Shown one piece after another: positions 7,683 to 14,950 of a DNA stretch of 23,929 bases. The stretch is from positions 1 through 23,929 of the forward strand of contig SUPR01000053.1 in NCBI GenBank assembly GCA_005191425.1, read 5' to 3'. This DNA is from Candidatus Helarchaeota ASGARD archaeon Hel_GB_B. GTDB taxonomy: Archaea > Asgardarchaeota > Lokiarchaeia > Helarchaeales > HEL-GB-B. Made by a program: the position numbers and the translations under genes. The first letter of the stretch is position 1, and every line of letters begins with the position of its first letter. Under the pieces are notes generated by a model. That model searched no databases. It was not told the origin of the DNA and saw only the letters and a program-made list of their open reading frames with translations.

Positions 7683-8450
7683 TTATAAAAGGACGTAATC
7701 TGTATCTAATTTATAGTCATATTTTTTATTTAATAGGTTATTTTTGTTCCCGCTTATTTTTATGAGCTGGGGTAATTTTCCAGTCATCCCGGCATATTTT
7801 CCCCTTATTATTAAAGCTCCCCTAATTCGATCTAATGACTCGGCAGCTTCCAACCCATTTTGAATAGATTTTTCAACGTCTGTTCCTATTACGTGGTTTC
7901 CTACAAATGTAGCGGCAGCGTCCCCTATAGTGGCATTTTCAGCAATTACCGTAGCTGCATCGGCAAGTCCAAAACTAAAGCCTCTACCAAATGTCCCAGA
8001 ACTTGTACCTAGCCCAAATGGGAAATCCTTATTTGGTATAAGTTTAAACCCTATTTTCCCAGACAATTGCGCATTTCCCGCGTAGATACCCACACTAATA
8101 TTGACCTTAGAGATTGCACTTATTTCTCCACCATTTTCGACTATACTTGTTTTTGACCCATTTTTCAGCAATTTCTCAAGAATTAAATCCGCAATGGCAC
8201 CAGCAACCGCTGCCATCGGTCCAACTTCAATAAACTCAGTTACTGACTGCATTTTCTTTACGACTAATGGCGCATTATCATCGACCTTTAATGGTGTCAT
8301 TGAATTTAAAAATTCATTATGGTGTTGAATATACTTAATTAGGTCATTCCTAATTTTCAATGTATTTTCTAATGCAATTTCTAATGAATTGACTAAATCT
8401 GATTTAATAAAAATGTCCGATTCTTTAACGTGTAGATTATAAGTAAATAT
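7683..8450 (-). CDS. UPF0280/ApbE-like family protein; start extended to a putative ATA at 8450
   Basis: VGPMAAVAGAIAD, VENGGEI, GTSSGTFGRGFSFGLADAATV and GDAAAT. The frame stays open upstream of the ORF-track TTG (8360) through the family-like segment FTYNLHVKESDIFIKSD. Confidence 0.85.
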   Translation of the reverse strand: MFTYNLHVKESDIFIKSDLVNSLEIALENTLKIRNDLIKYIQHHNEFLNSMTPLKVDDNAPLVVKKMQSVTEFIEVGPMAAVAGAIADLILEKLLKNGSKTSIVENGGEISAISKVNISVGIYAGNAQLSGKIGFKLIPNKDFPFGLGTSSGTFGRGFSFGLADAATVIAENATIGDAAATFVGNHVIGTDVEKSIQNGLEAAESLDRIRGALIIRGKYAGMTGKLPQLIKISGNKNNLLNKKYDYKLDTDYVLL

Positions 8451-8458
8451 GATATACG

Positions 8459-8463
8459 ACCTC
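8459..8463 (-). promoter_or_regulatory. Shine-Dalgarno GAGGT, 8 nt before the putative ATA start of the UPF0280 gene
   Basis: Minus strand reads gaGAGGTcgtatatcATAttt. Confidence 0.55.
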
Positions 8464-8475
8464 TCTGAATTTATG

Positions 8476-9864
8476 TTATTTAATAAATGAATTTAAATTT
8501 TTCATTTTCTTCTTACTTTTTTCATTACTTAACCGTTTTTCGATTAATTTTTTAGTTTCATCATCAATATATATTTTGTTTATTTCAAAAATGTCTATGG
8601 TATCACCAATTTTTAATTCTCCATAAGCGCCGTCAAATCCCGGAGGATGGAACGAAAAATTTCCACTTTTAATAGTATTAATTGTTTCTATTAACCGGTC
8701 GTCTATTATTCCAGATAACTTTTTTTGTATCATATTTTGATCTGTAAACCATAGCTCGCATTCATTTCCAAATTGTTCTACTATATCTGAATATATTTTG
8801 AGAATTTTCTTAGATGTATATGTCTTAATTCCTAAATATGCCCCAATAATCTCAATAAGAGGGATCATGTGAACAAACTTTTTTCTACCAGGTGGTAAAT
8901 ATCCATACTCTCTATCTCCACCTTGTAGTTTATTTAATTCCATTGCTTGTTGTAGCACTCCAATCGTAAGTTTTTTTCCACAAATTGGGCATAATTTATC
9001 TTCAGGGACGAATTTTGGCGAATAAATACAATAAGATGTATTATGCCCTTGTTTTCCAGCTCTATGACCTGTTAGAAAATATTTACCTTCAGTTGGATTA
9101 AATTCACTGGTATAAATTACATTGTTTTCTCGTAATGCCTTTATTATACTTTCGAATTTCATATCCTTTATTTTTACCGTTGTAAATTCTCTGCCTAACC
9201 TATTTAATGCTGGAGAATGGGCATCGCTATTTGATATTAAAGTTTTGTCGTCAAGTTCCGGGATTAAACTTAGGATGTATGGGTCTGCACTTAATCCTGT
9301 CTCGAAAATTTTAATTCTATCAGCCGCCTCTCCAAAAAAATCTTTTAACCAAACTATTGGATTTTGAGACCCATAAATCCCGTTTGGTGTCATTACATGA
9401 GCTGGTATTACTTCTATAAATTCATCTTGGTCATAGATTTTTAAAATCCTGTCTCCTACTTCTTTATTATTTTTACATTTTACAAAAGGCCTTCCAATTG
9501 TATTTTTTACTTCCCATTTTTCAAATAATTTTAAAATTCTATCAATTACTTCATAACTTGGAAATAAAAAGACAATATGAACCGATTTTCGATTTTTTGA
9601 GTTATTAATATTACAAGTAAAAATTAATTCTGTTTGTAATATAAATTGTACACCCTCTTCATGTCCTTTTAAAGCAAAAATCCCATCTGAAACTTCTATT
9701 AATTTTTCTTTTAATGTTTGTAGCCACCCTTCATGTAAACAATCACCAGTACCTATAAGATTTATACCTTTCATAGGGCCTGTTTTAAGAAAATCCTCTA
9801 ATTTTATCTTGCCAGTTCCTCCACTGTGCCCTGAATGATAATGTAAGTCTAAATTTAATTTTAT
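8476..9864 (-). CDS. Endonuclease Q / TIGR00375-family PHP nuclease; start extended to a putative ATA at 9864
   Basis: The in-frame DLHYHSGHS lies upstream of the ORF-track ATG. Other motifs: KG...GTGD, H..TP, ETGLSAD, SNSDAHS, RLGRE, EGKY, CPICG and PGFDGAYG. Confidence 0.9.
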   Translation of the reverse strand: MKLNLDLHYHSGHSGGTGKIKLEDFLKTGPMKGINLIGTGDCLHEGWLQTLKEKLIEVSDGIFALKGHEEGVQFILQTELIFTCNINNSKNRKSVHIVFLFPSYEVIDRILKLFEKWEVKNTIGRPFVKCKNNKEVGDRILKIYDQDEFIEVIPAHVMTPNGIYGSQNPIVWLKDFFGEAADRIKIFETGLSADPYILSLIPELDDKTLISNSDAHSPALNRLGREFTTVKIKDMKFESIIKALRENNVIYTSEFNPTEGKYFLTGHRAGKQGHNTSYCIYSPKFVPEDKLCPICGKKLTIGVLQQAMELNKLQGGDREYGYLPPGRKKFVHMIPLIEIIGAYLGIKTYTSKKILKIYSDIVEQFGNECELWFTDQNMIQKKLSGIIDDRLIETINTIKSGNFSFHPPGFDGAYGELKIGDTIDIFEINKIYIDDETKKLIEKRLSNEKSKKKMKNLNSFIK

Positions 9865-9871
9865 TTTAAAG

Positions 9872-13099: not shown

Positions 13100-14488
13100 T
13101 TATTTCAATCCTCCAACAACTAAATTTTTTACTCTTATAGTAGGCCCTCCATCTGCTACTGGCACTATTTGTCCAAATTTACCACAATGCCCTGGGGTAA
13201 ATTCTAGATCATTTCCAACTGCATCAATTTGTTTTAATGTGTAAAGAGTTTCTCCTGAAATTGCCACATCTCTTAACAATTCTTTTATTTCTCCATTTTT
13301 GATTATATTCCCTTTTGCACATTTAAACATAAAGGTACCAATTGCTGGGTCAGTATAACCGCGAATCCATCCTTGAGCATAGATACCGTCTTTAATATTT
13401 TCAATCATTTCTTCAAATTTCCAATCTCCAGGAGAAATATGTGTATTACTCATTCTTACAATTGGATAATAATGAAAACTTGCAGTACGAGCATTATTAC
13501 CTTCCATATTTAATCTAGATGCGGTTTCTAAGTTATTTAAATAACTTTTTAGAACTCCATTTTCAATTAATATCGTCCGCCTAGCTATTGCGCCTTCATC
13601 ATCAACTTCATATGACCCATATAAATTGGGAATAGTCGGGTCGTCAATTACATTAAGAAATTCAGGACCGATTTGTTTATTTAACTTATTTTCAAGTATC
13701 GATTCACCCGCCACTAATGCATCAGCTTCTGTAGCATGTCCAAAAGCTTCATGAATAAATGTTGAAGATAATTTTGGGTCTAATAAAACTGTATATGTAC
13801 CTCCTTTTACTGATACTGCTGATAAAAGTTCTATAGCTTCTCTAGCAGATTCCTCACCAATATTTGCTGCTCCTTCACTTAAAATTGTCTCATATCCGCG
13901 ACTTTCTCCTATACTTCTAAATCCTCGCTGTCTAATATTTCCTTCTTTACTAAAATTCATACTCACACATAATATATGACTACTTCTTTTTTCTATTATA
14001 CTACCAAAAGAATTACAAATTAAAACCGTAGATTCAGCATCTGAATAAATTGAATTGGTATTAACTATCCTATTATCAAAAGACTTAGCCTGTTTATCTA
14101 TCTCCTCGAGAAATTTCACTTTTTCTGTGATATCAACATCGCTTATTCTAATTTTAACATCAGACTGAAATTTTTCTTTTACTGGATCTCGCTCCTTTAA
14201 TTTAAATTTAATTTTAGAATTCTTTGTAATCAATTTGGCCATTTTAACTGCATGTTTAAGTTTATCTTGTAAATGTCCTTTCTCTAATATTGTACTTGAC
14301 ACGAACCCCCACGCTCCATCAATAAAAGCCCTAATTCCAACCCCTATATTGTTAAAATTAGACCCAACTTTCAGTTTAGAATCTATAATTTTAATATTGG
14401 TACCTATCGTCTCTTCGCTCCTGATATCTATAAATTCTGCTCCTAATTTTAAACCTTTATCGATCAATTTCTCAAATAAATCTTGCAA
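13100..14488 (-). CDS. tldD: TldD family metalloprotease
   Basis: GIRAFIDGAWGF, HEAFGHATEAD (HExxxH), DDEG, RMSNT and CGKFGQIVPVADGGP. Confidence 0.94.
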   Translation of the reverse strand: MQDLFEKLIDKGLKLGAEFIDIRSEETIGTNIKIIDSKLKVGSNFNNIGVGIRAFIDGAWGFVSSTILEKGHLQDKLKHAVKMAKLITKNSKIKFKLKERDPVKEKFQSDVKIRISDVDITEKVKFLEEIDKQAKSFDNRIVNTNSIYSDAESTVLICNSFGSIIEKRSSHILCVSMNFSKEGNIRQRGFRSIGESRGYETILSEGAANIGEESAREAIELLSAVSVKGGTYTVLLDPKLSSTFIHEAFGHATEADALVAGESILENKLNKQIGPEFLNVIDDPTIPNLYGSYEVDDEGAIARRTILIENGVLKSYLNNLETASRLNMEGNNARTASFHYYPIVRMSNTHISPGDWKFEEMIENIKDGIYAQGWIRGYTDPAIGTFMFKCAKGNIIKNGEIKELLRDVAISGETLYTLKQIDAVGNDLEFTPGHCGKFGQIVPVADGGPTIRVKNLVVGGLK

Positions 14489-14504
14489 TTCTAAATATAC
14501 CTTC

Positions 14505-14936
14505 TTAAATAGATTTATAATGTCCTAAAGAAACTTGATATAAATATCCTTCATTTATAAGATTATTAAATAATTCTTCAAATTTATCTTCAATAATTCC
14601 TAAATTTTCTATTTTTAATTTAAATTCTTCTAAAGTAAAACCATTTTTTGAACTTTTTGAAAGTTCTTTAATAATTTTAATAATATTTTCTAATTTTGAT
14701 TGCTTGCTGGTAGACTTCATTTCTTGTACTTTAATTTTCCCCCTAAACTCTTTTGGTAGTTTTAGTTGTTTAACAATTTCTGAAGCTACTTGTATATCGT
14801 CTACAATTTTAAGTTTTTTGACTATTTTTAAATTTATTGTAGTATTGCATTTCGGACATTTCTTAGTTTTCTGAAACCTTTCTGCATATAATGGTAATTT
14901 GCATTTATAACACCTAAAAACTATCCATTGAGTGAT
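14505..14936 (-). CDS. DUF1922-like Zn-ribbon fused to a C-terminal winged helix resembling the MCM C-terminal domain; putative ATC start at 14936
   Basis: The frame is open upstream of the ORF-track ATG (14720): TQWIVFRCYKCKLPLYAERFQKTKKCPKCNTTINLK...DDIQVASEIVKQL. The C-terminus is IIKIIKEL...FEELFNNLINEGYLYQVSLGHYKSI. Confidence 0.75.
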   Translation of the reverse strand: MTQWIVFRCYKCKLPLYAERFQKTKKCPKCNTTINLKIVKKLKIVDDIQVASEIVKQLKLPKEFRGKIKVQEMKSTSKQSKLENIIKIIKELSKSSKNGFTLEEFKLKIENLGIIEDKFEELFNNLINEGYLYQVSLGHYKSI

Positions 14937-14944
14937 ATCTACAA

Positions 14945-14950
14945 CTCCTT
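14945..14950 (-). promoter_or_regulatory. Shine-Dalgarno AAGGAG, 8 nt before the putative ATC start
   Basis: Minus strand reads AAGGAGttgtagatATCactcaatgg. Confidence 0.55.

Follow-up and report, generated by a model that had tools for sequence, protein, structure and literature searches.

The window analyzed here is a stretch of 23,929 nucleotides (nt) from the Candidatus Helarchaeota archaeon Hel_GB_B (contig SUPR01000053.1; C133 among the 182 contigs of our genome G000, which totals 3.54 Mb at 28% GC), and it contains three genes whose start codons are our subject: an Endonuclease Q (EndoQ) family gene, a UPF0280/ApbE-like gene, and a DUF1922 zinc-ribbon gene (Table 1). The original prediction held that none of the three has an ATG, GTG or TTG ahead of its conserved N-terminus, and that each has instead a Shine-Dalgarno (SD) motif 7-8 nt before an ATH codon (at 9864, 8450 and 14936); we confirmed the missing canonical starts at all three genes, and the motifs read as described. 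Spacings below are counted in nt from the first G of the aligned GGAGG to the start codon. Five further genes of the window (TIGR04013, tldD, pmbA, larB, and a gelsolin-like gene) had been assigned TTG starts, and in their orthologues the corresponding codon is indeed TTG or ATG.

The EndoQ frame is bounded by an in-frame stop at 9900, and its earliest canonical start is an ATG at 9774, 30 codons past the ATA; a protein begun there would lose the DLHYHS motif, which aligns with residues 5-10 of PfuEndoQ. The alignment to PfuEndoQ (5ZB8) begins at residue 5 and runs to residue 423 (E-value 1e-33, ∼30% identity), taking in the DLHxHS metal motif, the PHP domain and the zinc domain, and the TIGR00375 profile matches from its position 1, with a score under the family cut-off. 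These similarities place the gene in the Endonuclease Q family, with the enzymatic activity predicted. An ATG lies at or beside the aligned codon in the four other members of the order that have an intact 5′ end and in nearly all of 23 more distant homologues. In G001, a genome of the same genus, GGAGG is followed by an in-frame TAA and then directly by ATT, so that an upstream alternative start is excluded there. A metagenome scan returned distant relatives only, the nearest of which (48%) begins with ATG.

For the UPF0280 gene, the first canonical start is a TTG at 8360 (we had suspected that this TTG was lost in a sister strain, but it is kept), and the ATA at 8450 matches the usual spacing better than the ATC at 8453; a further in-frame ATA at 8474, 1 nt past the EndoQ stop and absent from the original prediction, is an option in this genome only. 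The NF003321 match begins at residue 2 of the form started at ATA 8450 (E-value 2e-73, slightly below cut-off). The aligned start in orthologues agrees within one to two codons: in G001 an in-frame TGA is followed two codons later by ATT, and the matching codon of G004 is TTG. In the DUF1922 gene the earliest canonical start comes 72 codons after ATC 14936, and the PF09082 match (E-value 1e-13) lies entirely upstream of it; the G001 orthologue reads ATC-ATA-TTG at this site, and could thus use TTG. The C-terminal part of the DUF1922 gene, which weakly matches the C-terminal region of MCM (E-value 1e-5), is possibly a winged-helix domain.

As had been argued in advance, errors that removed three ATGs are unlikely. 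The window stretch is carried by sequencing runs from hydrothermal-vent and marine-sediment metagenomes, with no RNA run listed among them, and four runs from four studies contain no indels at the three sites; no ATG occurs at any of them in 6-10 other assemblies per site (some of which may share one sampling region and are hence not fully independent). These assemblies carry the same codons, except for the sister strain, which has ATT in place of the EndoQ ATA. The three extensions together differ from those of the sister strain by nine synonymous and no non-synonymous changes (six and none in UPF0280), as expected under purifying selection. The public protein collection holds truncated EndoQ (432 aa) and DUF1922 (71 aa) products, and not the full forms.

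We utilized a homology-free test on 2,671 genes of at least 100 codons to look at start codons genome-wide. ATG starts peak at a spacing of 12-15 nt, and a strong SD precedes a canonical start in 393 genes (ATG 255, TTG 127, GTG 11). TTG thus makes up 32% of SD-led canonical starts and GTG only 3%, and by the criterion used only ∼15% of genes have a strong SD. In another 63 genes there is a strong SD with a canonical codon out of reach (the orphan-SD set), and 46 of them have an in-frame ATT, ATA, ATC, ACG or CTG at 12-16 nt, where 16.5 are expected; control spacings gave 22/63 and 10/66. All three window genes were recovered in this list, which was compiled blind. Near-cognate triplets at SD spacing were found in frame in 49 of 123 cases vs 13 of 223 out of frame (p = 1e-14), and they show the same 12-15 nt peak as ATG. 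The enrichment is 25-fold for ACG, 9-fold for CTG, 6-fold for ATC, and 2-2.5-fold for ATA and ATT. The excess amounts to ∼30 genes, or ∼50-70 among strong-SD genes once corrected for the 61% of starts that are visible. Two other approaches were less useful: assigning the start to the earliest in-frame ATG/GTG/TTG proved unreliable, because SD motifs themselves create in-frame GTG and TTG; and an ATG-anchored codon-switch test found one ATT among 120 anchors, with little power.

A homology audit, in which antisense frames were removed first by a coding filter and alignments were read by eye, found ∼13 of 643 informative G000-G001 pairs (2%) without a canonical start in G000, or roughly 3% with the same detectability correction, and three further pairs without one in G001 only. 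The cases include exact ATG/ATT and ATG/ATC switches between the two genomes, and also starts that are non-AUG in both. A first version of the audit, in which ∼10% of genes appeared startless, was rejected, since most of these turned out on inspection to be antisense shadow frames. We also removed or flagged two HdrA frames (C167:223 and C122:6704) and two hydrogenase-type frames as false positives due to selenocysteine UGA, and C26:788 and C113:30892 as repeat-domain fragments. In-frame TGA codons shared with G001 occur in heterodisulfide-reductase-like or hydrogenase-like frames at C167:223, C122:6704, C41:3841, C26:50288, C118:61091, and C167:2446; their conservation is consistent with selenocysteine, and such codons mimic missing start codons.

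Taken together, near-cognate starts are probably used by ∼2-4% of genes (an estimated 50-100 genome-wide), and they are a real minority habit, in 7-15% of strong-SD genes. The prediction of relaxed start choice throughout the genome therefore stands in that such starts recur across the genome and in relatives, but only at this low level; likewise, gene callers did truncate EndoQ and DUF1922, but the truncation concerns this fraction of genes rather than being systematic, and the proposed ATH set was incomplete, as ACG and CTG are also used. Three cases among the ∼22 genes of the window are above the genome average (binomial p of 0.01-0.06 for 2-4%); with 182 contigs, one window as rich as this is expected somewhere.

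The other affected genes include the sole copy of aIF1/SUI1; in 4 of 7 members of the order and 18 of 23 other Lokiarchaeia, no canonical start precedes the zinc knuckle of aIF1. Most aIF1 genes of the Lokiarchaeia sampled appear to start with AUU, AUC or AUA (mostly ATT), and those of several other Asgard families start with ATG or GTG. The weak start of priS (primase small subunit) is possibly conserved across two Asgard classes, judging from its apparent starts in G000, G001 and G041 (an Asgard archaeon of another class). The single-copy genes thrS (the only gene for threonyl-tRNA synthetase), priS, spt4 and aIF1 are all affected, and non-AUG starts common to G000 and G001 are found in aIF1, priS, spt4, uL29 (CTG), and one ACG case. 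For the last six genes of Table 1, family membership was checked for thrS and spt4 only. At the contig ends (1-1000 and 22700-23929 of the window) we observed transposase-like, partly broken frames (269-838, reverse strand; 23639-23929, forward strand).

Table 1. Genes of the window with their proposed starts and SD motifs, and candidate near-cognate-started genes elsewhere (coordinates are those of the window unless a contig or locus is given).
Feature	Location	Strand	Remarks
Endonuclease Q family gene	8476..9864	(-)	462 codons if begun at ATA 9864
EndoQ proposed start, ATA	9862..9864	(-)	ATT in sister strain and in G001
EndoQ SD, GGAGG	9872..9876	(-)	7-nt gap; 12 nt from first G to start; kept in G001
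UPF0280/ApbE-like gene	7683..8450	(-)	255 codons from ATA 8450; alternatives ATC 8453, ATA 8474
UPF0280 SD, GAGGT	8459..8463	(-)	8 nt to ATA 8450; aligned spacing 14 (ATA) or 11 (ATC)
DUF1922 zinc-ribbon gene	14505..14936	(-)	143 codons from ATC 14936
DUF1922 SD, AAGGAG	14945..14950	(-)	8-nt gap, spacing 12; identical in 10 other assemblies
aIF1/SUI1, sole copy	C107:21547-21861 (locus L171:2048-2362)	(-)	ATA behind GGTGAT
priS	G000 C124:9080; G001 L103; G041 L203:17739	(+) in G000; (-) in G041	apparent start at ATC/ATT/ATA behind SD
thrS	C126:19676		ATT, at position 1 of the Pfam editing domain; next canonical start 93 codons on
spt4	C132:10529		ATT; no usable canonical start
uL29-like	C96:39590 frame		CTG; common to G001
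folD-like	C45:9627		ACG; no usable canonical start
cbf5-like	C99:29220		ATT; no usable canonical start
Small GTPase	C178:2418		ATC; ATG in G003

The original prediction had named absence from relatives as telling against it, and we find the signal in G001, G003 and G005, and weakly in G041: the excess of near-cognate starts per canonical SD start is 0.075 in G000, 0.030 in G001, 0.025 in G003, 0.064 in G005 (the G003 and G005 counts being taken after removal of duplicate loci), and 0.031 in G041, where 7 of 18 orphan-SD genes have a near-cognate codon vs 3.3 expected (p about 0.03). The bacterial control, a 97-kb Clostridioides record of 32% GC with 81 genes, gave 0.004, that is, no excess. 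This record (L230/L231, NZ_CP149721.1) is filed as a plasmid, but is chromosome-like and has ribosomal protein operons. These samples, from Asgard archaea and one bacterium, are small.

We also checked the initiation machinery, since relaxed selection might have reflected an altered factor. aIF1, aIF1A and aIF2-beta align over their full length with solved archaeal factors, aIF1 having an intact zinc knuckle and RRYGK (basic) loop; the G motifs of aIF2-gamma are intact by eye, and uS9 ends in Arg. The initiator tRNA has a CAU anticodon, A1:U72, and three G-C pairs. On this comparison, which subtle changes could escape, aIF1, aIF1A, aIF2-beta and the initiator tRNA look free of obvious lesions, so the relaxed start choice is not attributed to a broken factor. 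The initiator tRNA gene (C160:36233-36329) contains a 21-nt intron, and many tRNA genes are interrupted; ARAGORN found 6 and Rfam 16.

We consider it very probable, from the sequences compared, that the three window genes are intact and translated from near-cognate codons, with the SD bringing the usual initiator tRNA to a codon that it matches at two of three positions, for a low-yield Met start. SD pairing would position the small subunit so that AUA, AUU, AUC, ACG or CUG occupies the P site. There the codon would pair through two of its bases with the usual CAU initiator tRNA, which would begin the chain with Met, at a yield presumably below that of AUG. Some of these starts would be recent, tolerated switches from AUG, and others would be kept across species (aIF1, priS, spt4, uL29, EndoQ). 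As aIF1, which rejects AUU in archaea, itself appears to start with AUA, feedback would hold aIF1 at a level permitting finite near-cognate initiation; by analogy with infC and eIF1, this feedback is the likely reason why near-cognate starts are tolerated. Several points weigh against this account. Initiation is read from DNA sequence; the bin yielded no 16S rRNA, so that the anti-SD is inferred and the SD motif is taken from the ATG spacing peak; few bacterial genes served as control and the archaeal sample is Asgard only; and the exact UPF0280 start codon is ambiguous. In addition, aIF1 of G041 starts with ATG and yet the weak signal is present, which weakens a strict dependence on the aIF1 start: a non-AUG aIF1 start is not required.

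Explanations that deny near-cognate initiation fare poorly. That ribosomes enter from an out-of-frame AUG further upstream, through frameshifting or termination-reinitiation, could be suspected from the short frame upstream of EndoQ, whose TAA overlaps ATA 9864 (9864-9890), from the UPF0280 ATA just after the EndoQ stop (8474-8478), and from the 10 of 48 candidates that read ATAA or ATAG; the strain with ATT, however, has lost the overlap and G001 does not have it, the G001 UPF0280 has its in-frame TGA before the ATT, and the candidates have an out-of-frame ATG within 40 nt only a little more often than canonical starts do (20/48 vs 124/393), all of which makes such entry very unlikely. Still more improbable is that the genes are pseudogenes, that sequencing or assembly went wrong, or that truncated proteins begin at a downstream ATG or TTG. 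We worked with a single-genome bin, and artefacts (antisense frames, selenocysteine UGA, repeat fragments) accounted for the first audit and for a few of the candidates on the list, but the identical codons in independent assemblies and the diverged strain refute DNA-level error for the three window genes, the extensions show synonymous change only, a truncated EndoQ would lose the HxH motif common to PfuEndoQ, and single-copy thrS, priS, spt4 and aIF1 are among the genes affected. We give least credence to a code in which AUA is read as Met, to an additional initiator tRNA, or to editing of the mRNA that creates AUG. Although the tRNA set was incompletely recovered (16 matches), the initiator tRNA that was found is of the ordinary kind; internal ATA aligns to Ile in 52% and to Met in 2.6% of cases, like ATT and ATC, which refutes reassignment; and no single reassignment or edit accounts for five codons.

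Two other explanations accept near-cognate initiation and differ in why it persists. ATG loss may be neutral or slightly harmful in an AT-rich, slow-growing lineage, any ribosome leaking at an SD with a near-cognate codon, with no special machinery or feedback. The species-specific switches fit this, as does the use of TTG for already about one-third of SD-led starts, and S. aureus near-cognate starts yield ∼10% of AUG output (PMC13009471); for most individual genes it is compatible with our preferred account of SD-led initiation held finite by aIF1. As a full explanation it is possible but somewhat doubtful, since ATT, a transversion from ATG, exceeds ATA (15 vs 14, after removal of two selenocysteine artefacts), ACG and CTG are the most enriched codons, the non-AUG aIF1 start is conserved across a class, and the low-GC bacterial control has no excess. 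Conversely, the starts may have been selected as a coordinated fidelity-sensing regulon, so that genes rise and fall with aIF1 occupancy; an AUA- or AUU-started aIF1 would set its own level and gate conserved near-cognate genes (primase, Spt4, uL29, ThrS, DNA repair). The retention of starts across species by information-processing genes (aIF1 ATA, spt4 ATT, uL29 CTG, the ACG case, EndoQ), the near-cognate priS starts that occur also in another class, and the use of ACG and CTG, which are not products expected of AT pressure, all point this way; but many cases are species-specific switches (ATT or ATC in one of the two genomes where the other has ATG), the list of affected genes is functionally mixed, and the more distant relatives start EndoQ with ATG. 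We therefore regard such an Asgard regulon, whether as the origin of the starts or as a working control circuit, as an unlikely and speculative proposal; if it were true, it would be an archaeal precursor of the non-AUG translation that eIF1 controls in eukaryotes. Regulation and drift can also occur side by side, each in some of the genes.

Should AUH, ACG or CUG serve as the start of tens to a hundred main genes in each Asgard genome, public Asgard proteomes would hold truncated or missing proteins, of which the EndoQ and DUF1922 products here are examples; this bears on domain, gene-loss and structure studies of the closest prokaryotic relatives of eukaryotes. Such starts would also offer a testable handle on how start-codon stringency was set before eukaryotes adopted AUG-only scanning, given that Lokiarchaeia are in culture and that aIF1 in this class mostly begins at a non-AUG codon.

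In E. coli, infC and pcnB have near-cognate starts behind an SD. Other bacterial examples are the AUU, AUA, AUC and CUG starts behind SDs of S. aureus infC, cvfC1, ccpN and citZ (PMC13009471), and the near-cognate starts of dnaA, rpsL, infC and Deide_03051 in D. deserti (PMC2830850). aIF1 of S. solfataricus discriminates against AUU in vitro (PMC4705826). Both IF3 and eIF1 hold down their own production by way of a weak start, AUU in infC and a poor-context AUG in eIF1 (PMC4705826, PMC6237735). Similarly, aIF1 as a fidelity-factor gene has a conserved weak start, AUA here and AUU, AUC or AUA in most Lokiarchaeia sampled; unlike infC and eIF1, its self-repression through its own start codon is our proposal by analogy. 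We found no mention of a non-AUG aIF1 start in the archaeal aIF1 literature examined. Reviewed archaeal start usage comprises AUG, GUG and UUG only (PMC7531240), Aeropyrum pernix being rich in UUG starts (cited in PMC2830850), and the Helarchaeote is like other archaea in accepting non-AUG starts. Ribosome profiling of Haloferax set aside near-cognate putative alternative start sites (∼30% of 160; PMC7261190); unlike those, the near-cognate codons here belong to main genes that have no other usable start. The literature searched, which took in few subscription papers, contained no account of Asgard main genes that start at near-cognate codons. The Helarchaeote starts resemble the bacterial infC, pcnB and ccpN type in their near-cognate codon, normal SD spacing, intact and sometimes essential genes, and neglect by gene callers; the bacterial reports concern two to four genes per genome with experimental support, whereas here at least about 30, and by estimate 50-100, genes with five codon types are put forward from sequence evidence. 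SD-led near-cognate starts are thus known in a few genes per bacterial genome, and their putative recurrence across the genome of an Asgard archaeon appears to be new.

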